Of a stretch of DNA of 64,000 bases, positions 45,274 to 60,559 are shown piece after piece. The translations under genes and the position numbers were made by a program. Origin of the DNA: an uncultured Pseudohongiella sp. (GTDB lineage: Bacteria > Pseudomonadota > Gammaproteobacteria > Pseudomonadales > Pseudohongiellaceae); the NCBI GenBank assembly GCA_951812715.1, contig OX638323.1, positions 1,776,577-1,840,576 on the forward strand. The letters run 5' to 3'. The notes under the pieces are model-generated. The model was not told where the DNA came from and did no database searches. It saw only the letters and a program-made list of their open reading frames with translations. Position 1 is the first letter of the stretch; the number at the start of each line of letters is the position of its first letter.

Positions 45274-46737
45274 ATGGAACGGGGCCTCGATTTGTCTGAT
45301 AATCCGATATTAGCCAACCCGCCGGTCCAGGGGCGTCAATGGAGTAAAACAGGACAGAACGTGAGTTTGTCGGATCTCCTCAGCGAACGCTCCATTCATA
45401 TCCGGATGAGTTCGGCTTGTACGGCCCAGCGGTCGGACTGCGGAAGGTTTCTCGCTATCGTTTCCGATAAGTTTCCCGAACTCCGTCTCACGAAATGGAC
45501 CCAAGTTTTCGAATTGGCCAACTCGCGGCTCAATGAGGGAGCGCCGCTGGTGGAACTTCGCGATTGCGTGCTCACTTCCGGCGACGACCGACAGGCCGCG
45601 GCCTACCTTGCTCAGATCGAGAGATTGTGCAGGGTCGGGCTGGTCGAGTTCCCGCTAGTCGATGACGAAGAAGAAGTTGCGGTTATCGCGCCGCAGCAGG
45701 AATCCTATATTCCGTCCCTCGCGCCGCGGATGCCGGATACGGCATTCGTGTTGCATCGCTTTGCTTGCCTGCGCCGAGATGGTGAGGCTTGGCTTGCCGA
45801 ATCACCGCTCAGTGGCGCGCGCTTCCGGTTCGTCGATCTCGACGCACTGGACCGACCGCTCGTTCGCCGGGCTCTCGCCGCCGCGGGATTTCTCCAAGCC
45901 GGTCGCCCGGAAGAAGATGTGCAGGGGCATACGCTGGCGCACTGGGAGTTTCATGATCTCATCTATCACACCCACAGCCGCAGAGGTTGGCACCATGATC
46001 CGAGCGGACCACAATGTCCGCTGATCGGCCTTGTCGAACCGGAGCCGGTCCGGCGCCCTGAGTGGCCCGGCGCCATCGTTTCACTTCCGCGCGCAGCCGA
46101 CGCGGGCGGAGAGGCTTGCTCCGCGATCCTGGAACGGCGTCGTTCCGAGCGTGACTTCGACGACAACAACCCGATCTCGATCATCGAACTTGGCGGTCTG
46201 CTCGACCGCGCGGCGCGCTCGCGCTCGTCCCTGGCAGGTTCCGTGCAGGATTCTTCCGGCAAGACCGCGCCGTTCGAAGGGGCCCAACGACCGTATCCAA
46301 GCAGCGGCGCCATCCATGAACTTGAGATATATCCCGTTGTCCACCTGTGCGATGGCCTCGACTCCGGCTTGTATCATTACGATTCATGGCGTCATGCCCT
46401 CGTGCGCATCCCGGCTGACGACGCGGATGTCGCCCGGCTGCTGCGGTACGCGAAAATCGCGATCAGCGCACCGGGAAACCCGCAAATCGTGCTTGCCATT
46501 GCCGCTCGATTTCCACGGGTGTTCTGGAAGTACAAGTCAATCGGATACGGCAATATTCTTCGCAACACCGGTGCGCTTTACCAGTCGCTTTACCTGGCGG
46601 CGACGGAAATCGGACTTGCCGCCTGCGCGGTCGGATCGGCCGATGCCATGCTGTTCGCCCGCATCACGGGCCTCGATCCGTTTATCGAGGGCTCGGTGGG
46701 AGACTTCGTCATCGGCAGCAGGCGCGGGATCGGTTGA
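45274..46737 (+). CDS. SagB/ThcOx-type FMN dehydrogenase (azoline oxidase) with a long N-terminal extension
   Basis: RFACLRRDGEAWLAESPLSGARFRF (SagB N-domain pattern), RRSERDF, QRPYPSSGAIHELEIYPVV, GYGNILRNTGALYQSLYLAATEIGLAACAVG. The true start is uncertain. Confidence 0.8.
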   Translation: MERGLDLSDNPILANPPVQGRQWSKTGQNVSLSDLLSERSIHIRMSSACTAQRSDCGRFLAIVSDKFPELRLTKWTQVFELANSRLNEGAPLVELRDCVLTSGDDRQAAAYLAQIERLCRVGLVEFPLVDDEEEVAVIAPQQESYIPSLAPRMPDTAFVLHRFACLRRDGEAWLAESPLSGARFRFVDLDALDRPLVRRALAAAGFLQAGRPEEDVQGHTLAHWEFHDLIYHTHSRRGWHHDPSGPQCPLIGLVEPEPVRRPEWPGAIVSLPRAADAGGEACSAILERRRSERDFDDNNPISIIELGGLLDRAARSRSSLAGSVQDSSGKTAPFEGAQRPYPSSGAIHELEIYPVVHLCDGLDSGLYHYDSWRHALVRIPADDADVARLLRYAKIAISAPGNPQIVLAIAARFPRVFWKYKSIGYGNILRNTGALYQSLYLAATEIGLAACAVGSADAMLFARITGLDPFIEGSVGDFVIGSRRGIG

Positions 46738-46757: not shown

Positions 46758-49682
46758 TCAAGTGAGTTGGCGTTTTACCAGATCTTGAAAAATGCCGCCG
46801 ATTTCCATGAGTTGTTCGAAGGATCCGCTTTCCACGACTTTCCCGGCCTGCATCACATAGATACGGTCGGCCTGTTCGAGAGTGGAAAGGCGGTGCGCGA
46901 TGACGATGCGGGTCGAGGTGAGCGCGGCGAGGTTTTGCATGACCTGTGCCTGGCTTTCGTTGTCGAGCCAGTTGGTGGCTTCGTCAAGCAGCATGATGTT
47001 CGGGCTGCGAGTCAGCGAGCGGGCGATGGTGACGCGCTGGCTTTCGCCGCCGGACAATACCGACCCGCTGGTGCCCACCGGCGTCAGCATGCCCATGGGC
47101 ATGGCTTTGATTTCCCGGTCGATTCCCGCGACTTCGGCGGTTTGCCAGACTTCCTCGGTGGTCGCCCCCTCGTGGTGGACGACGATATTGTCCCAAAGGT
47201 CTTGCGGGTGTAGTTGCACCGACTGTGGAACGGTTCCGATTTTTCGTCGCACCTGTTTGAGGTTCAGGTGGCGAAGGTCGCGGCCATCGTAATACACAGC
47301 CCCCGCGGTCGGCTGCTCAAGCCCGAGGGCGAGCTGAAACAGCGTACTCTTGCCGGCGCCGGATTCACCGGCAATGGCAATGAATTCCCCCGGACGAGCG
47401 TGAATGTTGACATCGTCCAGAATGAGCGGCCCATCTGGATCATAGCGGAATGAAATATGGTCGAACTGAACCTCGCCGCCGAGATGTTCAAAAGATTCGC
47501 CTTCCGTGGCTGACTCGGGAATTACGGCAAGCAGCGGCCGGATTTGCTCAAGACTGGGCGACATGGCGGCAATCGCGCCGAAGGACTCGCCTAACCGGGC
47601 CGCCGCGGTCTGGAAGGTAATGTATACCGTGTAGACCACGAGAAAATCCCCCACCGGCAGCGCGCGGTCGCCGGTGGCGGATACCGCGAGTAGCAATACG
47701 GCGCCGGTGAGAAGGGGAAGCGCCGCGCCGAAGGCCTGCAAGTGACCTTCGAGCGCGCCGAGTTCGAGTTCTGCCCGCTTCTGGTCGCGAAAATCCCGCG
47801 CCCAGATCGCGAAGGCCGAACCTTCGGCGCTTTCCACGCGCAATTTTGCGATGCCGTTGATGATCTGGAACAGTCTGCCGATTACCTTGCGCGCCGCGGC
47901 GAGCATGCGCTGGTAGGGCGCGGTTTGCCGCAATCCAATCAGTAGTATCAGCAATAACGAAGCGAGACTGAAGGCGAGAGCGATGAGTCCAAGCGTGTGG
48001 TCATAGATGAAAATAAGGCCAAACACAGGCAGCAGGAAAATTACCGACAATATGCTGTCCACGACAACTCCCTGCACTCCGTCGCGCAGGTTTTGAAAGG
48101 TTATTCCCCGCATAGCGAGATCCCCCGCCGGATAGCGGCGCAACACCCCCGCCGGCAGGCGCAGCAGGCGATCCCAGAACGCGGCTTCGATGCGTGCAGC
48201 CGAACGTCCTTCCAGCCGCATCATCGCCGTGCCTTGCAGCAGATGCAGCAAAGCGCCGAGCAGGCCGAAGCCCGCCAGCGCCGCCGCCACCGCGTAAACC
48301 GCGCCAGGGGTTCCGCCTTGCATGACATGGTTCGCCGCGAAACCCAGCGCCAGCGCCGGCAATAGCTTGATCAGCCCCGCCGGCAATCCGCTCAGCACCA
48401 GCCGCAACAAGTCACCGCCCGAGCCATGGAGGCCGATGCGCAGCAGGTCGCGGATATCCGCGCTTCCCGGCGGCAAGGGCCGGTAGAACATCCAGGCTTC
48501 CTCTTTCAAAGCGGCGGCCCGCTCCGCGGTAACCGGGACGCTGCGCCTGCTTGACGGATCGATTTCCCGGTAGCGCCCCGCGGCGCCGGGAACCAGGGCG
48601 ACTGGCTGGCTGTCCTCGGCGCGGAATGCGAGCATCGCATTGCTGTCGCCCAGCCACCATTGATCTTCGGCTTTCAGTTTGATCCGCCGGGTGCGAACCC
48701 CGGAAGCGTCGAGTATGTCTGCCAAGCGCAGGGGAGTTTCCAACGCGGCTGACCGCCGCGGAATGCGAAACTCGATCCCTTCCTTGCGGCCTACGATACG
48801 CATGGCTTCCGCCAGCGCCGCGTCGGCGTCTTCGGCCTCTTCTTCCGTCGGCAAGTCATAGATATTGAAAAGCCGGCGCCTGGCCGCCGCTTCGTCCCGG
48901 CGGCGGCTGCTCGCCCGGGCTCGTTCGAGATTGGCTGAATCGACTACGGCCAGCCGCCGGTTGAGACGCTCAAGCGCGTATGCAACTTGGTGAAACATGG
49001 CCAGGGCCGGTAGCAGCAGACCTTGTTCGGAAAGCTGCCCGGATGATTTCGCCGTGACTTCCGTCGTCCGGAACAAGGTGAGCCAGTTTGCCTGGGTCAA
49101 GGGAATCAGACCTTCCCCGCCGCCATTCTCTCCGGTTAATTCAGCGCCATCGATCAGATCCATGAACAGACTGGCGCCGCGCGGCGGCTGGGATACCCAA
49201 ACCACGCCGCTCCGCACGGCAAGTGTGCCTGGATTGTAGTTTCGCGCGGCGCCGGGAGTCGCCAAACCGTCGGAGCGCGGATGGTGGGTTACAAAGCGGG
49301 ACAATGCGCCGACGAGGTCGGTCAGCCAGTTGTCCACCTGTGTCGCGAGTTCGGCGGCGTCGGCCCCGGCGAGCGCGGACACCGGCAGCCGTTTAAGCAC
49401 GGTGCCAGGCAAACCCTTGGCGATGAGGCTCAAGGTGGTGTCTTGCTCGTCCGGCGCGACGCCCGGCAGGAGTCTGCCGGGCGTCGCGCGCAGCAAATGT
49501 TGCGGCGCAGCCTGTTCCACGCCGCCCTCGAACTCCACCAGAAACAGATCGACGGCGCCCTTGTCGATAAGCCAGATACAATCCGGATCGTCGAGCGTTA
49601 TCGGCAGATTGCCGGCGCAAGGAACGGCAACGCCGTCGCGTGCGGCGAGTTCGGAAATCGATATGTATTGCGCGTCAGACAT
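46758..49682 (-). CDS. NHLP/NHLM-bacteriocin-system ABC transporter permease/ATPase (second subunit; N-terminal cNMP-binding-like domain)
   Basis: 974 aa. N-terminal beta-roll-like region CIWLIDKGAVDLFLVEF. Six-TM ABC domain. Walker A GESGAGKSTLFQL, signature LSGGESQRVTIARSL. 4-nt gap to the C39 ABC gene. Confidence 0.8.
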   Translation of the reverse strand: MSDAQYISISELAARDGVAVPCAGNLPITLDDPDCIWLIDKGAVDLFLVEFEGGVEQAAPQHLLRATPGRLLPGVAPDEQDTTLSLIAKGLPGTVLKRLPVSALAGADAAELATQVDNWLTDLVGALSRFVTHHPRSDGLATPGAARNYNPGTLAVRSGVVWVSQPPRGASLFMDLIDGAELTGENGGGEGLIPLTQANWLTLFRTTEVTAKSSGQLSEQGLLLPALAMFHQVAYALERLNRRLAVVDSANLERARASSRRRDEAAARRRLFNIYDLPTEEEAEDADAALAEAMRIVGRKEGIEFRIPRRSAALETPLRLADILDASGVRTRRIKLKAEDQWWLGDSNAMLAFRAEDSQPVALVPGAAGRYREIDPSSRRSVPVTAERAAALKEEAWMFYRPLPPGSADIRDLLRIGLHGSGGDLLRLVLSGLPAGLIKLLPALALGFAANHVMQGGTPGAVYAVAAALAGFGLLGALLHLLQGTAMMRLEGRSAARIEAAFWDRLLRLPAGVLRRYPAGDLAMRGITFQNLRDGVQGVVVDSILSVIFLLPVFGLIFIYDHTLGLIALAFSLASLLLILLIGLRQTAPYQRMLAAARKVIGRLFQIINGIAKLRVESAEGSAFAIWARDFRDQKRAELELGALEGHLQAFGAALPLLTGAVLLLAVSATGDRALPVGDFLVVYTVYITFQTAAARLGESFGAIAAMSPSLEQIRPLLAVIPESATEGESFEHLGGEVQFDHISFRYDPDGPLILDDVNIHARPGEFIAIAGESGAGKSTLFQLALGLEQPTAGAVYYDGRDLRHLNLKQVRRKIGTVPQSVQLHPQDLWDNIVVHHEGATTEEVWQTAEVAGIDREIKAMPMGMLTPVGTSGSVLSGGESQRVTIARSLTRSPNIMLLDEATNWLDNESQAQVMQNLAALTSTRIVIAHRLSTLEQADRIYVMQAGKVVESGSFEQLMEIGGIFQDLVKRQLT

Positions 49683-49686
49683 CGTT

Positions 49687-51909
49687 TCAAGCTGTTTTGA
49701 CCAATTTGTGGTAGACGCCGTTTTCGTCCTTCATTAACTCGTCGTGAGTGCCGCGCTGCACTTTGGCGCCCTTGACGAGAACGATAATCTCGTCACAGTC
49801 TCGCACCGTGCTCAAGCGGTGGGCGACGATCAGGCAGGTGACCCCGCGGCGCCGCAAGGCGTTATCGACCAATTCCTCGGTCGCGGCGTCAAGGGCGCTG
49901 GTCGCCTCGTCAAGGACAAGTACCGTGGGATTGCCGACCAGCGCGCGGGCGATTTCCAATCTTTGCCGCTGGCCGCCGCTGAAATTCACGCCGCCTTCCT
50001 CGACCGGCGCCGCGTAGCCGAGTGGACGGTGCAAAATGTCTTCGTGAACGCTGGCATCCCGGGTTGCGGCGCTAATGGCCTCATCGGGAATCGCCGGATT
50101 CCAGAGGGTGATGTTGTCGCGCACGGTCCCGGAAAAAAGCACTACGTCTTGATCGACCACGGAAATGGAACGTTGCAAGACTTCTTCCGGAATCTCGTGC
50201 CGCGGTTTTCCGTCGAACAGGATTTCCCCTGACCAGGGCTGAATGAGTCCCGCGACGAGGCGCGAGACCGTCGACTTGCCGGAGCCGCTGGAACCCACGA
50301 TGGCAACCCGCTGCCCCGGCTTGATCACCAGATTAAAATCCTCGATCAGCGGTGGTTTGCTCTTGTTGTAACCGAAAGTTACGTTGCGAAGCTCGACCTG
50401 ACCGGTAAGCTGCAGCCGCCCCTTGAAAGTGGGCAGGGAATCCGCCTGTGGATTGCGGCGCGTGAATACCGGATCTTCGGCGGTCCTGGTTATGTCTTCC
50501 AGGCGGTGCAAATCTGATTCGATGGCCTGGCGCTTGTCGGCGAACTCGACGAAGCGCCCCACCGGCGCCAGGAACATCATCGCCAGAATGTAAAATCCCG
50601 CCAACGCGCCCAGGGTAATATCGCCTTCGAGTACCCGGCCCACACCGAACGCCAGGATAATCGCGCCGGCCAGCATCGACATCAGACCCGGCAGTGAGGT
50701 GTTGACGTATCCCAGTTCGGCATAGCCCTTGCGGGCATCGAGTTCGAGCGCCTGTTGACCCGACCAGCGCGCGAAGTAACGATCATCGGCCGCCACCATG
50801 CGCAAGTTGTCAGCGTAGTTCAGCATCTGCATGCCGATGCCGAGCAGCAATCCCTGTTCCCGCCGCATCGCATCCGCGCGGACGGAGCGTAGTTTCTTGA
50901 TGAAATGCGCCAGCACGGCATTGACCGCGGCCAGCGCCAGCACGATCAGCCCAAGCCAGATATCGTATAACAGCATGGCGGCCAGAAACACCAGGCTTGC
51001 CGCCATATCGATTATCAGCACAATAAACTGTTCGGTAAGGTTTTTCGCGATTCTGTCGATGGCCGAAACGCGGTCGGTCAGGTCGCCGACCAGCCGATGA
51101 TTGAAAAACTCCACCGGCAGGCGCAGCAACCGGGAAAAACCGCGGCTGTATCCGGCAATCGAAATCCTCGTCGATAGTCGCTTCAACAAACGATGTTTCA
51201 GCAAGGAAAGCAGATAGGCCAGCAAGCCGGCGCTACCCAGCAGAACCGCCGTCATGAGGCCCCAAGGTTGCTGGTTGATCAGCACATGGTCCACGAAGAC
51301 GCTCACCGAGGCGGGCGCCGCCAGCGCTAGCAAGGCCAGCATCAAACCGCAGACGAACGCTCCGGCGAGCCCATCCCAGGTCCCACCCAGCCAGACTCGC
51401 GCCTGCTTCAGCAAGCCGGGGCGTTCGCCGCCGGCCTTGAAGTTCTCGCCACGCTTCAGCCGCAGCGTGATTCTGCTGTAGCCCTTGTTGAATTCTTCCG
51501 TGGTAACCCGGCGTCTGCCAGTGGCGGGGTCGTTCAGATAGAGGTGATTTTCGTCATAGCCTTCCAGAACTACGAAGTGACTGTATTGCCAAAACAGGAT
51601 CGAGGGCAGCGACAATCGCTTGAGCATTTCGGTATTCACGCTCAGACCGCTGCACTCCAGCCCATAATGCCGCGCGGCGCGCAGGATGCCGGCCGCGCTT
51701 GAGCCGTCTCGGCTTACCTCGCATCTTTCGCGCAATTCCGTTAGCGGAATCCAGCGCCCAAAATGGGCCAGAACGCTTCCCAGGCAGGCGGCGCCGCATT
51801 CCGAGGCGTGCATCTGCAGCAGAATCGGCGTCTTTACCCTTTGCCTGTGCGGCTTGGAAGCGGCTCCTTTCGATTGGCTTGCTCGCGAGCTCGAACCGAC
51901 TGCAGACAT
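49687..51909 (-). CDS. NHLP-family bacteriocin export ABC transporter with N-terminal C39 peptidase domain
   Basis: C39 catalytic region QMHASECGAACLGSVL, SHFVVLEGY, LNDPA. Walker A GSSGSGKSTVSRL, signature FSGGQRQRLEIARAL. Its start abuts the stop of the adaptor gene. Confidence 0.9.
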   Translation of the reverse strand: MSAVGSSSRASQSKGAASKPHRQRVKTPILLQMHASECGAACLGSVLAHFGRWIPLTELRERCEVSRDGSSAAGILRAARHYGLECSGLSVNTEMLKRLSLPSILFWQYSHFVVLEGYDENHLYLNDPATGRRRVTTEEFNKGYSRITLRLKRGENFKAGGERPGLLKQARVWLGGTWDGLAGAFVCGLMLALLALAAPASVSVFVDHVLINQQPWGLMTAVLLGSAGLLAYLLSLLKHRLLKRLSTRISIAGYSRGFSRLLRLPVEFFNHRLVGDLTDRVSAIDRIAKNLTEQFIVLIIDMAASLVFLAAMLLYDIWLGLIVLALAAVNAVLAHFIKKLRSVRADAMRREQGLLLGIGMQMLNYADNLRMVAADDRYFARWSGQQALELDARKGYAELGYVNTSLPGLMSMLAGAIILAFGVGRVLEGDITLGALAGFYILAMMFLAPVGRFVEFADKRQAIESDLHRLEDITRTAEDPVFTRRNPQADSLPTFKGRLQLTGQVELRNVTFGYNKSKPPLIEDFNLVIKPGQRVAIVGSSGSGKSTVSRLVAGLIQPWSGEILFDGKPRHEIPEEVLQRSISVVDQDVVLFSGTVRDNITLWNPAIPDEAISAATRDASVHEDILHRPLGYAAPVEEGGVNFSGGQRQRLEIARALVGNPTVLVLDEATSALDAATEELVDNALRRRGVTCLIVAHRLSTVRDCDEIIVLVKGAKVQRGTHDELMKDENGVYHKLVKTA

Positions 51910-52461
51910 TCAAGTTCTTCCAGGTCCCAGGAGTGAAACAGGTGAATATTCACCCAGGGTGACGACGATTCTGCATTCCGATCCATCCACCGCGGATTCG
52001 CTGATGTCTTCGCCAAGCGAGATTCCCAGCCGGTGCATAGCCGCGGGCGCCGCGGCGGTTTGCCATTGCATCCCGCCGGAGTCGGTAACGGCGGCGATTG
52101 AGGCTATCTCGCCGACAACCCGCAATCCTTCTCCGTTAACGCCGGAAAGCTCTAACGCAGTTGTCATTCCGGGCTCGAGCATTTGCGCGATGTCCCGCTC
52201 GAGCCAGATCATGGACTGCACCGTCCGGCCCGTGGCGGCCGGATCTCCGGCAGCGGCAACCAGCACGCCGTCGAGAGCGACGCTGCGTGTTACGCTCCCC
52301 AGGAACAGCCATCCGGCAAGCGCGAGCAAGGTTAATCCGCATGCCGCGACGAGCAGGCGTTCACGGGGCGTGGTGACTGTAAGCAGCCGGTCGAGTTGCT
52401 CCCGCTCCTCCTTGGCCTCCGCGACGATTTCGTGGAATGGTTCAAAAGGATCTGCAAACAC
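51910..52461 (-). CDS. HlyD-family (NHLM-type) secretion adaptor lacking the coiled-coil hairpin (183 aa)
   Basis: EQLDRLLTVTTPRERLLVAACGLTLLALAGWLFLGSVTRSVALDGVLV fits the N-terminal consensus of NHLM-system HlyD proteins as I recall it. The C-terminal part LEPGMTTALELSG...VVGEIASIA...CRIVVTLGEYSPVSLL fits the barrel end. The middle alpha-hairpin is absent. Confidence 0.65.
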   Translation of the reverse strand: MFADPFEPFHEIVAEAKEEREQLDRLLTVTTPRERLLVAACGLTLLALAGWLFLGSVTRSVALDGVLVAAAGDPAATGRTVQSMIWLERDIAQMLEPGMTTALELSGVNGEGLRVVGEIASIAAVTDSGGMQWQTAAAPAAMHRLGISLGEDISESAVDGSECRIVVTLGEYSPVSLLGPGRT

Positions 52462-52604: not shown

Positions 52605-52859
52605 ATGAGAAACGGCAACGAGGCATTGGATCAAATTGTCGAAAAATCCACACTGGATGCGGATTTCAGACAAAATCTGCTGGCAGATCCAAAAGCCACT
52701 ATTTGTAAGGAATTGGGAGTTACGCTTCCCGATTCGATGACTGTCAAGATTCATGAGAGCGACATGCAGACGGTGCATCTTGCATTGCCGCCAGCCATGG
52801 ATCTCACTGACGAACAGCTCGAAGCTGTCGCGGCTGGCCTTTGCTGCTGCGGTTGGTAG
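52605..52859 (+). CDS. NHLP (nitrile-hydratase-leader-peptide) family RiPP precursor; predicted core LCCCGW
   Basis: LDADFRQNLLADPKATICKELGVTLPDSMTVKIHESDMQTVHLALPPAMDLTDEQLEAVAAG matches the NHLP leader consensus, including the VLPP block and the eeLeavaGG-type cleavage motif. Six residues follow. Strong SD and a downstream terminator. Confidence 0.85.
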   Translation: MRNGNEALDQIVEKSTLDADFRQNLLADPKATICKELGVTLPDSMTVKIHESDMQTVHLALPPAMDLTDEQLEAVAAGLCCCGW

Positions 52860-52984: not shown

Positions 52985-54094
52985 TCAAGGCGCGACCGCT
53001 CCGGAAAGCACCATGAACACATAGGCCTTTGCCTGTCGGAGCCGATTTTTGGATATGGTCAGTTTTATGTGGTGAATGCCGCGCAGCATCACGTAGCGCC
53101 CGGATTTCGCAAACAGCGGAGTCGGTTTTGATATCCAGTCGGCAAGTGCGGCGACCTTTTCCGGAATTACAATATCCTCATGGCGCAAGGCTTGCAGGAA
53201 CGGATTCCAATCGGTCAGGCCATCGAGCCAATATTCCGAATCTTTGCTATGTCTCTCCCTCACAATCAGCGTAAGGCCGAGCGTTGACCCGAGACCCTTT
53301 TCCAGCACATCGATATTCGCCCCGATCTCGATAACATTCACGCGTTTCCCGAAGCGTACAATCGTGGAATCGACGGCTGAAACCTGACCCGGCCAACCAG
53401 TGTTTTCGAGCCAGGCGCATATTGCTTGCCGCGATTTGAATCCCATGACCGCCAGACGGATTGCCCGCGAGCGAGACGGGAATACACCGAAAGACTCCAT
53501 GCGCGTATCCTCCGGCTGCGCCAGGTAAACCCGTTCGACGTTCTCCCGTTCGGCGTCATTCGTCTCCCAGCCTACGCAGGAAACGAGCGCGTCGATCACC
53601 GTGCCGGCATCGTTCGCCCGGCCTCCGGCGCCGATAATCGGACGTTCGCGGGGTATCAGGAACATACCCGGAAGCGGAGATTCGCCACCCCGGGCAGTGC
53701 CAATGTCATATTCCAGCATCAACTTGCGACCGACAATTTTGCGCAGAGATGAGTTTTCGGCATCGATTTGCCGGCACAGCCGCGTGATCGCGTTCGCGGT
53801 CTCGTCCGTCCGCGCCCGTTTCCGGAAATACGCTGCCGACCTGCTTCCGCTCGCCAGCGAGATGCCGAAATCCGCCTCCGGCCTGCTCGTATGCAGCGGC
53901 AATTCGAAGCCGAACGGAAGGGCGGCCATTGTGATAGGAAGGTTCCGAGCGCATTCGAGTATGCCTTCCCATTCCGGGTCTCCGATCAGAACCGGCGAAA
54001 TCCGGTTGCGAAAGTGCCCCAGCAAGTCGCCCATGGCGCCGCCCTCTTCGGCGAGCCGGTCCTCGGTTAGCGCGACTGCTTCGTCGCTTTGCAT
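52985..54094 (-). CDS. hypothetical protein in the RiPP operon (candidate tailoring enzyme; family not recognised)
   Basis: 369-aa ORF co-oriented with the cyclodehydratase and the leader-fused gene. Repeated paired-strand-like segments: LMLEYDIG, AIRLAVMGF, VIEIGANIDV...LGLTLIV, IHHIKLTIS...AKAYVFMV. Confidence 0.55.
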   Translation of the reverse strand: MQSDEAVALTEDRLAEEGGAMGDLLGHFRNRISPVLIGDPEWEGILECARNLPITMAALPFGFELPLHTSRPEADFGISLASGSRSAAYFRKRARTDETANAITRLCRQIDAENSSLRKIVGRKLMLEYDIGTARGGESPLPGMFLIPRERPIIGAGGRANDAGTVIDALVSCVGWETNDAERENVERVYLAQPEDTRMESFGVFPSRSRAIRLAVMGFKSRQAICAWLENTGWPGQVSAVDSTIVRFGKRVNVIEIGANIDVLEKGLGSTLGLTLIVRERHSKDSEYWLDGLTDWNPFLQALRHEDIVIPEKVAALADWISKPTPLFAKSGRYVMLRGIHHIKLTISKNRLRQAKAYVFMVLSGAVAP

Positions 54095-54176: not shown

Positions 54177-55481
54177 TCATCGACCTGCCAGGATTTCGAC
54201 GAGACGCTCCAAAGCTTCGATGCAAAACGCCGAGGTCACGGCTTCGGAGCCATGCCCTATCCGCCCCGCCACACCCCATTTCATATGCTGGTCGCCAAAC
54301 GCGAGCAGCTCCGGCCAACTGCCGTCCTGACGTTGCGAGCCCATTAATACTTGCGCCAGGCGTTTCGCGTCGACGCTCTCAAGAGCTCCAATATTATAGA
54401 GCGCCGACACTGCTTGGGCAGTCCCGAGGATGTTGCCAAATTCTCCCTTGTCATCGCTTAAGCCCAGAATGCGATCCGCCAGTATCGGGCGCAGCCGTTC
54501 GAGCGCGGGCCGCGCGCGACTCATGGCGCGGGCGGCCGCATAGTAGATCGCGACCGTATCGGGATACCATTTTGACGAACCTTCAAGCTTGCCTTCCGCG
54601 ATCAAGGCCTCCAGCCATCGTTGAGCATCCCTGGTTTCGGGATAATCGCCCAGGTAAGCAATGACGTTCGCATTAACGACGGGGTCGGCTTCTATACGAA
54701 AGGGCGGCGCGACGTCGGGTTCGTCCTCCGCGTGCAACCAGGTCATGAATCGGCCCTCTTCGTCGCGGTTCTCAAGCATTTGCGAAACGTTCCTTCTCAG
54801 CGAAATCCAGGGGTGAGTCCCGATGACCAGCGAACAGAGCGCGGCGCTGTCTAGATCCAGGGGCAGATGGCGGTAATAGCGCCACAACCCGGGATATTCG
54901 ATGGTGTCGACAAGATACGCCTTGGTTGCGGCGCACATGGCCCTGGCCCGCGCTTCATCGCAACTTTCGAGAGCAAGGACGCAAAAAGCCGAAATAAAGG
55001 GGGGTTTTTCGTAATGCCGCGGAATGTCCGGGTCAGCCGTATTGAACCGCACACAGCGCCAGGCCCCGTTCTCGTCAATGGTCGATTCCAGGAACTCCAG
55101 ACCGCGGCGGATACTTTCCCTGCCCGCTTTTGCAAGTGCTTCGGGTGTAGCTACGCTTGCTCGGGCTATCGTCCTGTCGACTGAGTGGGGACGAAGAGGC
55201 GGCGCGGGGTCGTACATCGTTTTGCGAAGAAAATCTAGCGATGTGGTACCGGCTTTTGCCGCCTCCCGTTCCGCGGCGCTGAATTTGCCGCGCGGCGGGA
55301 GCACCAGATGTGTCGCGTTGCAGGTTTCCTCATGCACATGAATTTCGTGATCTTCGGCCAGCATCACGCCGAGTTCCTTCTCGATCGCTTCCCTGGGATT
55401 CGCGATAAGGCGTTGACGAAATTCGCTGTCTTCGCCGGCTTTCGATAAGAGAGACTCTACTGAATCGATGCGCTTCTTCAT
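54177..55481 (-). CDS. NHLP leader-like domain fused to a prenyltransferase/squalene-cyclase-repeat (alpha/alpha toroid) domain
   Basis: N-terminal ~78 aa (EDSEFRQRLIANPREAIEKELGVMLAEDHEIHVHEETCNATHLVLPP...EREAAKAG) aligns without gaps with the precursor leader. The C-terminal ~365 aa carries QW-type repeats IDENGAWR, NRDEEGRFMTW, SDDKGEFG, QRQDGSWP. ATG at 55481 chosen (ggaaaag 4 nt upstream); the track ORF starts at a TTG at 55517. Confidence 0.75.
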   Translation of the reverse strand: MKKRIDSVESLLSKAGEDSEFRQRLIANPREAIEKELGVMLAEDHEIHVHEETCNATHLVLPPRGKFSAAEREAAKAGTTSLDFLRKTMYDPAPPLRPHSVDRTIARASVATPEALAKAGRESIRRGLEFLESTIDENGAWRCVRFNTADPDIPRHYEKPPFISAFCVLALESCDEARARAMCAATKAYLVDTIEYPGLWRYYRHLPLDLDSAALCSLVIGTHPWISLRRNVSQMLENRDEEGRFMTWLHAEDEPDVAPPFRIEADPVVNANVIAYLGDYPETRDAQRWLEALIAEGKLEGSSKWYPDTVAIYYAAARAMSRARPALERLRPILADRILGLSDDKGEFGNILGTAQAVSALYNIGALESVDAKRLAQVLMGSQRQDGSWPELLAFGDQHMKWGVAGRIGHGSEAVTSAFCIEALERLVEILAGR

Positions 55482-55575
55482 TGACTTTTCCAATTTCAAC
55501 CGCTCCCAGGCGCCCAATTCGCGCGGTAAATACTGTTCCGGTTCATATTGCCCCGCCGATATTCATATCCACTTC

Positions 55576-57969
55576 TCAAGCGATTACCGGCATGGGATTG
55601 AGTTCGGCCTCCGCCAGCGGACTCTTTCGCAGGCCCATGTCAACCGGAACCTGGTACAGTCGACCCGGCGCGAGTCTTTCCCAGAAATGGCGCATGCCGG
55701 GCACGATCACCCGCACCACGGGCATGCCGATATCGGGCCGTGTCTGATCGAGCACTAGCAGTTCCATGCCTTTGGCTTCGACCAGCCCCCGGCAATATTC
55801 GACGTCATCGCGGGCGTCCGTCGATTCGATGAGCGGATAATCCCGCGCCTGGCGCATTGGCGCTTCGGCCGGCGCCAACCAGGAGCAATCGGACAGTCGC
55901 GCTGTTTTCCACCACCATAGCGCAAGCGGGTCGTCGATCATGGGCTTGGCATTGTGGCTGCCGGGGCGATTGCCGGGCCGCGGCAGCCAGGTCAGGCACT
56001 GGTTCAATTCGCAGATCGCCCGCTGGGCGGCGATCTTCGGGTCGGCGTGGGCGCCGGCGCCGTAAATTATGTCTTCGGTTTCCGCGTCCGGCCTGCGCGA
56101 GAGCGCGACGAAAGTTGGAATGCAGATATCCGAGGTGACATCGAGCAGCCAAACTTCTCTTTCGCATTGGGCGTAATACTCGGCGGCCGAAGCGAGGTAC
56201 CGGTCGTTGAAACTGGCAAGATCGACCATCGGCGCCCGCAGCCGGTTGTACCACCAGATAGCGAAGGCATCGCGTTCGGCCAACTCATAAAAGCCTTGCA
56301 GGATCGCCTCTTCACGGGTGTTGCCGGCGGCGCAGCCGTTGGAATCGGCGAACAGGTCGAATTTTCCGCGTTGTTCGGGCGCCATGCTGTAAAGCATCGA
56401 TGTCGGCAGATAGCGATGCCGCTGGCTGGAAAGCGACCAGACCGGCGTCCAGTCGATTTCGGCATCGGGATCGAGGCGCGGTGGTATGACATTATATGGG
56501 TGTCCCTTGGCATTGATGCTCGCGGCGTTGTCGAGTTGGGTTTCGCTGAACAACTGAACTTCGTTGGGATGGATTGCCGCCGCCTCATCGGCGAAATCGC
56601 TGAAGCTCTTGCAGGTACGAATTTCCTCGCCATGCAAGGCGCCCGAGTATCGCTCCACCGCCTCGCAAAGCGCGCTGACTTCGGATTGTTCTCTGGTGCT
56701 GCCCTTGCCGGCGCTCTTGCTGCGCAAGCTGCGCCGCAGCGAACTCAGTTTGCGGCTACGCATTCCCAGATTGCTGCCGGCCCAATAAACATGCAGCCAG
56801 GAATCGGTTTCGTCGGTGGTGCGCGTCAGCCAGGTAACGACGCCACTGACCGGGCTGACGAGGTGACGGTATTTCGCCAGCGTAACTTCCGGCGCCACGG
56901 TGCGCGCGCCGCCGCTGTTGCTGACGGCCTTGGGGCTTGCTTGCAGGCGCGGCGGTACCGGCGGCCGATCCGGGCGATAAAGCGCTTCGTCGCCACAGGC
57001 CCGACATTGCGGCCGTCGCATTACCCGATGCCGCGAACTCTCGAAACGGCCGGTATTGAGCGTCAGCGCGTGCTCGTGAATCGGGGCCTCCTCGCCGAGC
57101 ACGACCCATTTGACGATTTCCGCGGCGATCAATCCATAGAGCGCGTCGATCACCGCCGGTTCCCGGGCGAAGGGCTTGAAGGCTGCCTCCTCGCCGCCCA
57201 GGTTACGCAGAAAATTGTGCACTTCCTGGTGGGCGCGCAGGCGGTAACTCAGACAGGCCCAGCAGGGGCCTTTCCCGTCCGCGTGAAAGACGGGACCGAA
57301 CAGCGGCTGAATGCCCCAGGGCCGAACAAGCATCCAGGGCGCCCCGGTTTCGAGCTGGCGCCCGTTCACTTCCGCGAAGCGCTCCTTCAGATAATCCGCG
57401 CAGACAATGACGCTGAGCTTCGGATCCTGATTTCCCACAACCGCGCCGCTTGACTCAAGCCTTGGGATCAGGCGGTCGTCGTCGCCGGATACCGCGATTC
57501 GCGATTCCGCCAATTGCTGCTCGACCCAGCGCGGCGACGCGCCAAGCGACGACCAATAGGCCGCCCGATCCGCATCCATGCCATGATCGGCGGAAAGCAC
57601 ATAGCCCTTGGTGGAGAGCGAGGCCAGCGCCGTGAGCACATCCGCGGCGGCATGGCTGGCTTCAAGCGCGGCAATGATTTCGCCTTGCGCGCGCCGGCCG
57701 TCGAGCAGCGGCAGCAGGTCGCAATACAAGCCGCCATGCAACAGGGTATTGAAAGTCTCGGAAACGAGCAGTGTCTGCTGTTCGCCGATGACGTGAAAGC
57801 GCAAGTGGGGAGCGAGCGCGGGGAGTTCGACCAAGCCCTGATCGGCTGGGGTGATTCTCCTCAGTATTCCACCAGAGGATCTCGATTCCGTTTGGGTCCG
57901 CACCTGAATATTCCGCGCCGGCTTAACTAGGTATTCTCTGAAAAATTCCAGTCCAGTCGCGGAGCGCAA
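55576..57969 (-). CDS. fused TOMM cyclodehydratase (E1-like leader-docking domain + YcaO domain)
   Basis: 797 aa, the size and architecture of PatD/TruD-type fused enzymes. N-terminal LRFHVIGEQQTLLVSETFNTLLHGGLYCDLLPLLDGRR resembles the docking-domain consensus. The C-terminal half is YcaO-like and ends NPMPVIA (Pro-rich C-terminus). TTG start is uncertain. Confidence 0.8.
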   Translation of the reverse strand: MRSATGLEFFREYLVKPARNIQVRTQTESRSSGGILRRITPADQGLVELPALAPHLRFHVIGEQQTLLVSETFNTLLHGGLYCDLLPLLDGRRAQGEIIAALEASHAAADVLTALASLSTKGYVLSADHGMDADRAAYWSSLGASPRWVEQQLAESRIAVSGDDDRLIPRLESSGAVVGNQDPKLSVIVCADYLKERFAEVNGRQLETGAPWMLVRPWGIQPLFGPVFHADGKGPCWACLSYRLRAHQEVHNFLRNLGGEEAAFKPFAREPAVIDALYGLIAAEIVKWVVLGEEAPIHEHALTLNTGRFESSRHRVMRRPQCRACGDEALYRPDRPPVPPRLQASPKAVSNSGGARTVAPEVTLAKYRHLVSPVSGVVTWLTRTTDETDSWLHVYWAGSNLGMRSRKLSSLRRSLRSKSAGKGSTREQSEVSALCEAVERYSGALHGEEIRTCKSFSDFADEAAAIHPNEVQLFSETQLDNAASINAKGHPYNVIPPRLDPDAEIDWTPVWSLSSQRHRYLPTSMLYSMAPEQRGKFDLFADSNGCAAGNTREEAILQGFYELAERDAFAIWWYNRLRAPMVDLASFNDRYLASAAEYYAQCEREVWLLDVTSDICIPTFVALSRRPDAETEDIIYGAGAHADPKIAAQRAICELNQCLTWLPRPGNRPGSHNAKPMIDDPLALWWWKTARLSDCSWLAPAEAPMRQARDYPLIESTDARDDVEYCRGLVEAKGMELLVLDQTRPDIGMPVVRVIVPGMRHFWERLAPGRLYQVPVDMGLRKSPLAEAELNPMPVIA

Positions 57970-58159: not shown

Positions 58160-60559
58160 TCAGGCGCGTACGCCAAGAGCTTCGATTTCGGCGGCGGCGC
58201 GGAATGCGGTTGCGGCAACCGCCACATTCAGCGCATCGAAATTCTCATGACCGCATGCGCTCGCGACAAGCGCCTTGATTTTCGCAGCCGAGGAATTGAC
58301 GTCGAAGCCCTCATCGCCGATCAAACACACAATGCCCTGCAAATCCCGGCACATGGCGGCAGCTTGCGCGAGCGATTCGGCGCCCGCGCTTTCGAACACG
58401 CTTGCCGCGCTCGGCTCTGAATCTTCGATCTTGCCTCCAGCGCCGGTTATTTGAAGATAACGCGCGGTTCGCTCAATATCGTCGAGTCCGCCGCGCATGG
58501 CTGCAAACGAAGTCACGCCCGGTTCCGGAGCGTCTTCGGGCAGTTGGCGCAATTCGGCCATCAGCGCGTCGTTTCTACTCCAGCCGTCGAGGATTTCGCG
58601 CCGAACCTCGGCAAAACGGCTGCCCAAATTCGAGTCACCGGATTCGAACGCGCAACGCGCCCTGCTCAGGTCGGGAACTTCTTTCGGCGCCGCGCTACGA
58701 TAAAGTTCGGCGAGGTCGCAAAGCGGAAGCGCCAGACAGGACTTCGAATCGCTCGGCATCGGCGAGAAAAGCAGGCTTTCCTGGGTCAGATCGGAAAGGA
58801 TTTCGCGAAAGCGCTTGCACAGGTGTTCGTTTTCGCCCGCCCGCCAACCGTCATGGACAAACAGGATATCCACCGTGGCGCCGGGATGGACCTCGCGGCT
58901 GGCCAGATCTCCGAGGAAGATCGCCGCTATGCCGCCTTCGCGCAACGGACCGCGCCGGTCGACGAAGTCCGCCACCACGGCGGAAAGCACGGTCGTGATC
59001 GAAGCTTCGGCGAGATTCGACAAGGCGGCTTTCGCTTCGGCCGGAGACAGGTTTCCGCGCACGGTGTGCATGCCGATCTGAAACGCCCGGTCGTTTGACC
59101 AGTTGCGCACGATTTCGGCGGTTTCCCTGGCATCGGCCACGGGAATCTCGGCGATCTGGCTCTTCATTTCCTGAACGTCCATTTCGCGAGTCCAATACAG
59201 CCGAGTCAATCCGCGCCGCGCGATCGATTCGGATTCAGGGTCGGGTCCGAATCCCTTCGGCAGGTCGAGATCGGTGAATTCGCGTTCGGTCAGGTTGTCG
59301 AGCAATTCCGGATTGCGTTCGATCCATTTGGCGAGCCGCGGAGCGGCGCCGAAAATCTCGACGATCGCGTCGAAAGCTTCTGGACGCGACGCCGAAACCG
59401 GGCTGTCGTAGGCGCTCCAGTCGTCGATCTCGGGATAGAAATACTTGCGCCATTGGTCGACAATGGGGTCCATTTTTGCAAACCATCGCTTCGGCCGCAG
59501 CACGAGATTCATCATGTCGCCATAGGTTCCCGGCAAATGCGGCGATTCCTCGGGGTTACAATTCTGCAGCAGCGGAAATTGCCGGCTCGCGACCGCGTGA
59601 TGGTCCGCGTGGCGCTGCATGTTGAAGAACAGCCAGTTACTGAACTTCCAGTCGGCGCTCCAGGAATGACGCGGCATCACCTTTTCCCAGCGACCGTTCG
59701 CCAGCCGCACCCGGCGCAGTCCGTAATGTTGCAGGTAGTTGCTGATCTTCATCGAAAACACGCAACTGAACCCGAGCGCCGCGAAAACAAGCACGGCCCA
59801 AATGCCTCCCATTAGGAAAACCAGGCCGTACCAGAACGCCATATAGGCGCCATAGCGCCAGAACGGATTGCTCAAGTGCCAGATCGGCAGGCGCCGCCGC
59901 GCCAGACGCTCTCCGGCGACTTTCCAGGAGCCGGTGAGATTGCTGATGATCTCCTTGGGGAAATAACTCCAGAAACTCTCCCCCCTGGGCGCCGATCCTA
60001 CGTCGTGAGGCGTGCCGACCTGGGCATGGTGGATATAGATGTGTTCGGTGGAATATTGCGGGTAGGAGGCGGATGCGAGCAGCAATTCCCCCAGCCGCCG
60101 TTCCCAAGAGGTCCGCCGGTGAATCATTTCGTGGCCGACGATGAAGACCGCCTGTGCTTCTACAGTCAGGATAATTGCCAGTAATACGTCTTCCCAGACC
60201 GCGAAAGGATTGGCGACCAGGATCTGCCACATGCCGAAGATGAGCGTCGGGGGCCAGAGTAACGCCCAGGCCCACGCGGGCAGATTGTGCCAGAGCAGGC
60301 GGCGTTCCGGTGTCCTGGCCGGGTCCATGTTGCGGCCGTCGAGTCCCATCACCCGGTCGATCATGCCGTTGCCACTCATGAAAAAGAGAAACGGCGGCAA
60401 CAGCCACCAGCCGCCGTAAATCGAGGCGGCAACAATCAGCGGGAAAATTCCCAATGGCAGGTAATGCGGAAGCGCATTAAAAATCGACGGCTCGATCAGT
60501 TTGGGAATGTCAGCGTTTTGCGGGCCTGGGCCGCCCGGTGTGATCGTATCTTGTGGCAT
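58160..60559 (-). CDS. fusion protein: AlkB-type membrane di-iron hydroxylase + GlnE-like nucleotidyltransferase module
   Basis: N-terminal half has the His boxes HEMIHRR, EHIYIHH, NYLQHYGL, QRHADHH of the alkane-1-monooxygenase family. The C-terminal ~400 aa resembles one adenylyltransferase repeat of GlnE (FLGDLASREVHPGATVDILFVHDG). Confidence 0.7.
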   Translation of the reverse strand: MPQDTITPGGPGPQNADIPKLIEPSIFNALPHYLPLGIFPLIVAASIYGGWWLLPPFLFFMSGNGMIDRVMGLDGRNMDPARTPERRLLWHNLPAWAWALLWPPTLIFGMWQILVANPFAVWEDVLLAIILTVEAQAVFIVGHEMIHRRTSWERRLGELLLASASYPQYSTEHIYIHHAQVGTPHDVGSAPRGESFWSYFPKEIISNLTGSWKVAGERLARRRLPIWHLSNPFWRYGAYMAFWYGLVFLMGGIWAVLVFAALGFSCVFSMKISNYLQHYGLRRVRLANGRWEKVMPRHSWSADWKFSNWLFFNMQRHADHHAVASRQFPLLQNCNPEESPHLPGTYGDMMNLVLRPKRWFAKMDPIVDQWRKYFYPEIDDWSAYDSPVSASRPEAFDAIVEIFGAAPRLAKWIERNPELLDNLTEREFTDLDLPKGFGPDPESESIARRGLTRLYWTREMDVQEMKSQIAEIPVADARETAEIVRNWSNDRAFQIGMHTVRGNLSPAEAKAALSNLAEASITTVLSAVVADFVDRRGPLREGGIAAIFLGDLASREVHPGATVDILFVHDGWRAGENEHLCKRFREILSDLTQESLLFSPMPSDSKSCLALPLCDLAELYRSAAPKEVPDLSRARCAFESGDSNLGSRFAEVRREILDGWSRNDALMAELRQLPEDAPEPGVTSFAAMRGGLDDIERTARYLQITGAGGKIEDSEPSAASVFESAGAESLAQAAAMCRDLQGIVCLIGDEGFDVNSSAAKIKALVASACGHENFDALNVAVAATAFRAAAEIEALGVRA

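Follow-up and report, generated by a model that had tools for sequence, protein, structure and literature searches.

The 64,000-nucleotide stretch of uncultured Pseudohongiella DNA analysed here (hereafter the window) carries, on the minus strand at 54177–55481, an open reading frame (ORF) for a 434-amino-acid (aa) protein that joins an NHLP-leader-like domain to a toroid resembling class II terpene cyclases. The ORF lies in a cluster of the srp type, a family of proteusin clusters that make RiPPs (peptides synthesised ribosomally, then post-translationally modified) with NHLP leaders. We consider it fairly probable that the protein serves as the cyclase in a maturase pair of this srp-type cluster, a split prenyltransferase/cyclase whose other half is a neighbouring 369-aa protein; the two probably add a cyclised lipid to the final Trp of the precursor peptide. 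The elements on which this reading rests are listed below.

54177–55481, minus strand: NHLP::class II terpene-cyclase-like fusion protein, 434 aa (profile, homologue and model evidence)
55248–55481, minus strand: NHLP-like domain of the fusion, residues 1–78 (BLASTP, TIGR03793 and AlphaFold2 model)
55146–55247, minus strand: linker, residues 79–112, with a conserved SL(E/D)FLRKT..DPAPP element
54180–55145, minus strand: alpha/alpha toroid, residues 113–434, like the beta domain of class II terpene cyclases (profile, AlphaFold2 and Foldseek)
54840–54857, minus strand: DLDSAA, residues 209–214, degenerate general-acid motif of the DxDD type (hidden Markov model (HMM) alignment)
54315–54335, minus strand: QRQDGSW, residues 383–389, QW-type motif with Q383, G387 and W389 invariant
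52985–54094, minus strand: 369-aa protein, predicted ABBA (PT-barrel) aromatic prenyltransferase and cyclase partner (AlphaFold2 and Foldseek)
52605–52859, plus strand: NHLP precursor, 84 aa, with the core LCCCGW at 52839–52856 and Trp as the last residue (profile match)

The program-made ORF starts at a TTG at 55517. Since homologues of 432–434 aa begin with MKK, we prefer the ATG at 55481 as the start codon. More than 1000 homologues of the fusion were found, and the 120 that were listed are all about 433 aa long with 99–100% coverage. The same uninterrupted fusion ORF occurs at 80 genomic loci from many phyla at 67–77% identity, and the identical 434-aa protein is encoded on two independent contigs. 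An assembly or frameshift artefact is ruled out by the two contigs, the listed full-length homologues and the 80 loci with a continuous ORF, and the in-frame fusion described in the initial annotation is genuine. Mean pairwise identity among 57 orthologues was 70% in the NHLP nucleus, 61% in the linker and 79% in the toroid, compared with 78% among the true precursors. The value for the nucleus indicates that the NHLP domain is under constraint; the linker is the least conserved portion of the fusion and was modelled with low confidence. On sequence grounds, the fusion is real and under selection.

Class II terpene-cyclase features of the toroid

AlphaFold2 modelled the fusion protein with a predicted local distance difference test (pLDDT) value of 85.5 and a predicted template modelling score (pTM) of 0.81, residues 113–433 being mostly above 90. 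The C-terminal part forms the alpha/alpha barrel of single beta-domain class II cyclases, in agreement with the ~365-aa prenyltransferase/terpene-cyclase-fold domain of the initial annotation. The four (D/E)xxGxW/F motifs noted there are also present, namely QRQDGSW and, in addition, IDENGAW (residues 135–141), NRDEEGRFMTW (238–248) and SDDKGEFG (342–349).

Pfam matches on the ORF were weak for both SQHop_cyclase_C (1e-5) and Prenyltrans (0.021). An exhaustive search of 50%-identity representatives returned 513 relatives with E < 1e-10, most of which are stand-alone proteins of ~320 aa aligning with residues 110–430 at 30–47% identity. When compared with solved structures, the family profile matched the cyclase domain of the drimenol synthase AsDMS over its full length (E 2.4e-20), and it also matched AstC, 8paj and 8pak (single-domain "squalene-hopene cyclases" of 345–365 aa), the prenylcyclase 6ij1 and MstE. 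Foldseek ranked AsDMS first (E 3e-11), followed by 8pak, 6ij1 and 8paj and then by MstE, these four with target-normalised template modelling (TM) scores of 0.65–0.71; E values for class II cyclases ranged from 1e-11 to 1e-8. Protein prenyltransferase beta subunits appeared only at ~1.5e-3, with TM scores of 0.27–0.35 and at rank 47 or below. To judge from these profile and model comparisons, the toroid looks like the class II terpene cyclase type and not like a protein prenyltransferase. A prenyltransferase beta subunit is ruled out by the Foldseek rank and TM scores, the Prenyltrans value and the lack of an alpha subunit in the cluster, and a LanC-type toroid by the lack of any LanC match in the Foldseek and profile searches. 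The initial annotation had raised Cys prenylation as a speculative option, which is not supported because the beta subunits rank so far below the class II cyclases.

The same annotation saw no DxDD motif and judged a protonation-type class II cyclase unlikely. The first statement holds to the letter, but DLDSAA is a degenerate homologue of that motif. In the HMM alignment, PPDLD(D/S)T of the family falls on PDDLDTT of AsDMS, so that Asp211 of the fusion matches D323, the general acid of AsDMS, which lies in a DxDT motif (PMC12232559). The DxDD motif of class II cyclases varies, with strict conservation at its middle Asp only (PMC12232559). All 112 of 112 aligned fusion and stand-alone sequences have D211; the motif reads DLDS(T) in the fusions, and DLDDT (78/90) or DLDS (12/90) in the stand-alone proteins. 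The toroid family thus possesses a DxDD-type motif with a strictly conserved middle Asp. With this invariant residue on D323 and the AsDMS-type profile and Foldseek matches, the judgement against a class II cyclase does not hold.

The toroid shares with AsDMS, AstC and MstE a single alpha/alpha barrel, a QW motif and a D-x-D-(T/S/D) motif whose middle Asp falls on D323. MstE cyclises a prenyl chain on an aromatic ring and not a diphosphate, which resembles the substrate proposed here. However, toroid identity to these enzymes is only 16–23%, the fusion has no HAD domain, C216, H223 and C420 are specific to the family of the fusion, and the predicted substrate is a peptide-bound isoprenoid. By our reading of the alignment, only R368 among the diphosphate-binding residues of AsDMS (R368, R370, R415 and Y416) has a counterpart, R262. 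C216 and C420 vary little or not at all across the whole toroid family, and H223 hardly varies either, which may point to a metal-binding or structural role. AsDMS has different residues at the C216 and C420 positions, again as read from the alignment.

These three residues could form a metal site, and the precursor core is rich in Cys. Both observations would suit a different explanation, in which the toroid is a non-catalytic binding, immunity or decoy protein, or a Zn-dependent toroid (LanC-like or protein-prenyltransferase-like) that alkylates Cys thiols. However, class II cyclases stand far ahead of prenyltransferase beta subunits in the structural and profile searches, in which LanC is absent, and some cores of sister clusters contain no Cys (AYY, ...DW). 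Moreover, the Cys residues of srp precursors go into thiazolines (PMC10858898), and the general-acid Asp is invariant. We regard this explanation as improbable, and the decoy or immunity role offered in the initial annotation lacks support because the catalytic Asp is invariant.

The predicted prenyltransferase partner

No match to the 369-aa protein was found in Pfam or NCBIfam, and a PDB search by sequence with its family came back empty up to E 10; useful matches came from the fold search alone. AlphaFold2 gave a (beta-beta-alpha-alpha)x5 barrel with a pLDDT of 77 and a pTM of 0.81. All of the top 50 Foldseek matches of this model were ABBA aromatic prenyltransferases, led by the bacterial Trp/indole prenyltransferases PriB, 5-DMATS and IptA (E 7.5e-7 to 1e-5, TM ~0.55). 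Very divergent members of the 369-aa family show no or almost no variation at R208, R213, H342, K344, K356 and Y358, which lie mostly on barrel strands, H342/K344 and K356/Y358 with i/i+2 spacing; conservation extends to E64, E128 and D130. ABBA prenyltransferases usually bind the diphosphate with basic and Tyr residues that face the barrel interior. From the model, the 369-aa protein is predicted to be an aromatic prenyltransferase.

The genes for the two proteins recur together. Stand-alone toroids close to that of the window (40–57% identity) were examined in ten contexts, and in nine of them a protein homologous to the 369-aa one is encoded nearby (HMM E 1e-25 to 1e-100). The stop codon of the prenyltransferase-like gene overlaps the start codon of the toroid gene in five of these nine. 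Some single polypeptides also combine the two families, in either order, prenyltransferase–cyclase (P-C) in P0225, P0268 and P0217 and cyclase–prenyltransferase (C-P) in P0260, and the P-C fusion proteins are annotated only as "hypothetical protein". Other toroid fusions carry a different N-terminal domain with a weak Trp_DMAT match (P0188), a cytochrome P450 (P450), or an isoprenyl-synthase-like domain with DDxxD motifs by reading of the sequence (P0184). On this comparative evidence, the toroid and the 369-aa protein are functionally linked.

The sister clusters containing stand-alone toroids combine NHLP or Nif11 precursors with C39-peptidase ATP-binding cassette (C39-ABC) exporters and have no YcaO; their common tailoring enzymes are P450s, JmjC proteins and CmcJ/NvfI oxidoreductases. 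Their cores are short, and nearly all have a Trp, frequently at the very end (SSWNCSCRTC; ...WDDW, ...ADW, ...RDW and ...RNW; ...SHSGW; YGMMWG and FGMMWG). CmcJ/NvfI-family oxidoreductases adjoin stand-alone toroids in two NHLP clusters (L081:8988–10007 and L086:6981–7916), and two P450s accompany the three-residue core AYY in L082.

A prenyltransferase linked to a cyclase has a close precedent. NctPC is described as joining a prenyltransferase domain of the ABBA type to a cyclase domain like MstE, and as geranylgeranylating Trp and then cyclising the chain (PMC13290415, on Hubrich et al., Chem 2024). ChrPC combines a domain like trans-isoprenyl diphosphate synthases, acting as prenyltransferase, with the same kind of cyclase domain (PMC13290415), and the product has been named steromaze (PMC13647313). 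The fusion architectures listed above agree with these descriptions. Likened by description, these enzymes and the window pair both comprise a prenyltransferase and an MstE-like class II cyclase for the Trp of NHLP/Nif11-type precursors, and homologues of the two window genes occur as P-C fusions in both orders. The acceptor residue is present as well: the core LCCCGW ends in Trp, and nearly all related cores contain Trp, many of them as their last residue. Unlike NctPC and ChrPC, the prenyltransferase and cyclase of the window are two separate proteins, the cyclase carries an N-terminal NHLP domain, and the cluster would also make azol(in)es.

The initial annotation knew of no described system with this architecture. 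This stands for the NHLP::cyclase fusion itself and not for its setting, since the srp family (2021) and the prenyltransferase-cyclase maturases (2024) were already known. Neither the fusion nor a split pair inside srp clusters was found described in the literature searched. A link between srp and prenylation or terpene cyclisation was likewise not found in the searchable literature, including a long 2025 review of sponge peptides in which the words prenyl, isoprenoid and terpene cyclase do not occur.

Several observations weigh against assigning the pair to Trp prenylation and cyclisation. The quality of the 369-aa model is moderate (pLDDT 77; TM ~0.55 to known prenyltransferases). In the general-acid motif of the fusion, the fourth position is Ser instead of Asp, and Ala213 is unique to the window sequence, its orthologues having Thr or Ser. 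The core AYY of L082 has no Trp, the single exception seen. The cluster has no gene for isoprenoid supply, and no isoprenyl diphosphate synthase was found when the window was searched with the synthase-like domain of one homologue. The published srp studies report azoline formation and bromination only (PMC10858898, PMC10286304). Finally, a metagenome scan with an 8-sequence toroid alignment yielded mainly distant toroids (loci L096–L171, mostly from soil, 24–36% identity) that keep a DLDDTA motif and sit with glycosyltransferases, sulfotransferases and ABC ATPases instead of RiPP genes. Because of these glycan-type neighbours, homology at the level of the fold does not by itself fix the substrate. 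None of the 75 distant toroids (0/75) has a prenyltransferase-like partner or an NHLP gene beside it, and the RiPP association is therefore limited to the close toroid clade. We treat the distant soil toroids as a separate subfamily and do not count them as support.

The NHLP-like N-terminal domain

BLASTP aligned the 84-aa precursor with the ORF over residues 1–78 of both without gaps (27/78 identities, 35%; E 3e-16). TIGR03793 (leader_NHLP) matched residues 7–65 with 51.3 bits, a borderline pass of the 50.9 cut-off, and Pfam NHase_alpha matched the fusion ORF at 4.9e-6. The second NHLP leader of the initial annotation is thereby borne out, and the blocks said to be shared with the precursor (FRQ-L-A-P, KELGV, HL-LPP and A-G) are all present. 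The AlphaFold2 model has helices at residues 7–17, 19–27 and 29–37 (block-averaged pLDDT 82–86) and a low-confidence hairpin of strands 48–53 and 56–60. It thus contains the three-helix nucleus and beta hairpin of NHLP leaders, in agreement with the nucleus described for MprE7 (PMC12455567). In the hairpin region of the fusion, residues 42–51 (55329–55358, minus strand) read EDHEIHVHEE, a strongly conserved His/Glu-rich segment where precursors have DSMNIKVHES; E46, H48, H50 and E52 would share one strand face.

The nucleus is followed by a diverged tail, FSAAEREAAKAG, at the place of the L(X)4L...AAG of the precursor. The consensus leader end is ...LPPDPN-I-TEEQ-L-EAISAG|LCCCW in the precursors, compared with ...LPPRSK-F-SEAE-R-EAARTG-AASLEFLRKTLHDPAPP in the fusions. 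Relative to the precursor consensus, the fusions have Ala for Ile at −4, Arg for Leu at −7 and usually Thr for Ala at −2, and L(X)4L has become F(X)4R, with Arg replacing the second Leu. The leader-like part of the window protein ends in AKAG (VAAG in the precursor, ARTG in the orthologue consensus) and is trailed by a 356-residue folded domain where the precursor has a short core. The fusion therefore lacks the combination of L(X)4L, a double-glycine site with hydrophobic residues at −4, −7 and −12, and a short core. The hydrophobic −4 and −7 positions of double-glycine leaders are used by C39 domains, and L(X)4L serves the SrpI brominase, the RiPP recognition element (RRE) domains of YcaO proteins and C39 domains.

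The use of L(X)4L by all three is documented for SrpI, YcaO RREs and C39 domains in PMC10858898, PMC12455567 and PMC12715784. Since L(X)4L and the hydrophobic −4/−7 residues are lost, export or cleavage by the C39 transporter is unlikely, and the NHLP domain would be neither a C39 substrate nor an export signal. This bears on a possibility raised in the initial annotation, that the toroid is a protein-sized cargo which the NHLP leader sends to the C39-ABC exporter, to be cut after AKAG and secreted. The exporter genes are adjacent, and AKAG in the window does resemble the VAAG of the precursor. However, the consensus is ARTG, and the Ala at −4, the Arg at −7 and the Arg in place of the second Leu of L(X)4L fall at positions that C39 domains use. 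In addition, the catalytic Asp is invariant, and orthologues without an NHLP leader serve the sister clusters as stand-alone proteins. We know of no case in which a transporter of this class exports a folded toroid of 40 kDa, and we give the cargo explanation hardly any credence.

The second determinant of YcaO binding and specificity is the alpha1 helix (PMC12455567). In the fusion, alpha1 shares ~2/14 residues with that of the precursor and is the least conserved segment of the NHLP domain. As far as these alignments indicate, the domain is not a faithful leader mimic for YcaO. The proposal in the initial annotation that the leader docks the toroid on the cyclodehydratase is weakened because the fusion departs from the cognate precursor in both RRE-binding elements, L(X)4L and the alpha1 face. 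It could apply in a modified form, in which the NHLP domain fills one RRE site of the YcaO dimer and either activates the enzyme or places the cyclase beside the core held on the other subunit. The YcaO RRE binds NHLP leaders in their folded form, and two such sites are available in the dimer (PMC12455567). All NHLP::toroid fusions seen are in srp-type clusters, with YcaO present wherever the flanks reached, while stand-alone-toroid clusters have no YcaO; SrpC alone was reported to be poorly active in E. coli (PMC10286304), and leader-only NHLP ORFs exist in a related cluster. However, the association of fusion and YcaO probably reflects one evolutionary event, and both determinants known from MprE7/MprC have changed (~2/14 shared in alpha1; F(X)4R for L(X)4L). 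The NHLP domain of the fusion also shows no cognate covariation with its own precursor (30.4% cognate versus 30.6% non-cognate identity), a result that counts against a docking role for the domain more generally. Overall, we find this activator or dock for YcaO unlikely.

Within the split prenyltransferase/cyclase reading, our most economical guess is that the NHLP domain docks to the prenyltransferase or to another surface of the complex; the folded NHLP nucleus is what other maturases grip (PMC12537861, PMC12715784). The NHLP part of the window fusion is 45% identical to the precursor of L082, a stand-alone-toroid cluster, versus 35% to its own srp precursor, and the corresponding values for L081 are 43% versus 41%. 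The greater similarity to the L082 precursor hints that the fusion arose from the precursor gene of such a cluster.

In engineered leader-enzyme fusions, a leader is joined to a LynD-type cyclodehydratase or a lanthipeptide synthetase. The window fusion resembles them in that a leader is covalently attached to a maturase. However, the engineered leader keeps its recognition motif and activates its own enzyme, whereas the motifs of the window fusion are lost and homologues of its toroid work without a leader domain in the sister clusters.

Leader-only NHLP ORFs were seen in one stand-alone-toroid cluster (L085:1085–1336 and L085:9971–10186). One, of 83 aa, is coreless and stops exactly at ...AAG, and the other, of 71 aa, ends in ...LVLPPVAGS. 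Such ORFs might act as leader domains in trans, or they might be precursors that have decayed.

The srp-type cluster and the proposed maturation route

The remaining genes of the cluster in the window are as follows.

45274–46737, plus strand: SagB-family azoline dehydrogenase (profile match)
46758–49682, minus strand: second ABC exporter subunit, NHLM_micro_ABC2 (profile match)
49687–51909, minus strand: C39-peptidase ABC exporter, NHLM_micro_ABC1 (profile match)
51910–52461, minus strand: short protein of 183 aa resembling the HlyD N-terminus, exporter accessory (profile match)
55576–57969, minus strand: fused leader-binding/YcaO cyclodehydratase of the SrpC type, 797 aa (profile match)
58160–60559, minus strand: 799-aa membrane FA_desaturase-type::GlnE-type nucleotidyltransferase-like protein (conserved cluster member)

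The srp clusters are sponge-derived RiPP proteusin clusters (Nguyen et al., JACS 2021; PMC10858898, PMC10286304). As reported there, the precursor SrpE has the core LCCCW, the YcaO protein SrpC forms three thiazolines, and SrpI acts as brominase on the terminal Trp (PMC10858898, PMC10286304). The additional srp genes have been called "several genes of unknown function" (PMC11832590). By synteny with the 80 related loci, the window has the NHLP precursor with a Cys3-Trp core, the YcaO protein, the C39-ABC exporter and the orthologous accessory genes of this family, and judged by gene content and order its locus is a variant of the published srp cluster family.

The named records among the 80 loci are all metagenome-assembled genomes (MAGs), and many isolate names and taxa (Poriferihabitaceae, Ca. 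Palauibacter) fit sponge symbionts. Their labels include Deltaproteobacteria, Binatia, Nitrospirales, Gamma- and Alphaproteobacteria, Acidobacteriota, Gemmatimonadota, Nitrospinota and others. The commonest gene order is HlyD-like protein, C39-ABC, ABC2, fusion, desaturase-GlnE, YcaO, 369-aa protein and precursor. If the letters A–I follow this order, the fusion ORF would be SrpA and the 369-aa protein SrpD. The precursor core is LCCCW in 60 of 65 related precursors, and 42 related loci encode a 433-aa Trp halogenase.

The window shares with srp an NHLP precursor whose tiny core is of the Cys3-Trp type, a fused YcaO, a C39-ABC exporter pair and the same accessory genes (ORF orthologues at 67–87% identity), the relatives being sponge-symbiont MAGs of many phyla. 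It differs in its core, LCCCGW and not LCCCW, in the lack of a Trp brominase corresponding to the Trp-6 brominase SrpI and in the adjoining SagB gene. A tblastn search of the whole 64-kb window with the halogenase of a related locus gave nothing better than E 2.9, and SagB was not found in the 80 related loci within the 10-kb flanks in which it was looked for.

In the route we propose, the precursor would be held through its NHLP leader while YcaO turns the three Cys of LCCCGW into thiazolines, a step shown for SrpC acting on SrpE (PMC10858898, PMC10286304). SagB would probably oxidise the thiazolines to thiazoles. The 369-aa PT-barrel protein would then put an isoprenoid, probably C15 or C20, on the C-terminal Trp, as its fold, gene linkage and precedent suggest, and by homology Asp211 of the toroid would protonate the distal C=C of the isoprenoid and cyclise the chain. 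The C39-ABC exporter would cut after AAG and export the product. Our guess for the NHLP domain of the fusion is that it docks the cyclase in the maturase complex, with either the prenyltransferase or the YcaO dimer. The combined proposition, that srp peptides are more than brominated azoline pentapeptides, being terpenoid-bearing lipopeptides with a cyclised isoprenoid placed on the C-terminal Trp by the split pair, and that the cyclase recruits itself to the maturation complex through a domesticated leader copy with its folded nucleus intact but stripped of all substrate motifs, is tentative and in our estimation doubtful as a whole.

Few biosynthetic clusters of sponge microbiomes are as widely shared as the srp clusters, whose end product is cryptic. 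If two of their unassigned genes encode a terpene cyclase and a Trp prenyltransferase, one would expect a lipidated polycyclic terpenoid-peptide instead of a small azoline peptide, and the masses to seek in sponge extracts would change; this may also bear on the poor reconstitution with SrpC and SrpE only. The NHLP::cyclase fusion would then represent a natural reuse of a RiPP leader domain within an enzyme, of interest for the way in which structured NHLP leaders coordinate maturation by several enzymes and for the engineering of leader-guided prenylation and cyclisation.

Further observations concern the accessory genes and precursors. The 183-aa protein covers only the first ~50 residues of the 421-residue NHLM_micro_HlyD model, and the short form (184–297 aa) recurs in related clusters. 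The 799-aa protein comprises an FA_desaturase/AlkB-type di-iron domain (residues 122–344) and a GlnE-like region (~466–785); a homologue stands beside the fusion or YcaO gene in 59 related loci and could tailor a lipid moiety. The flanks of srp loci often contain an MMPL/RND transporter with a sterol-sensing domain (27 loci; e.g., L080:1756–4104), a LolA-like protein (20 loci; e.g., L066:17742–18716) or a DUF1302-like protein (11 loci; e.g., L007:17651–18880), none of which is in the window, and such neighbours would suit the handling of a lipidic product. Second precursors occur in two srp loci, where the cores WCCCGN and WCCCGQ place Trp first (L070:18603–18851 and L078:18450–18668).

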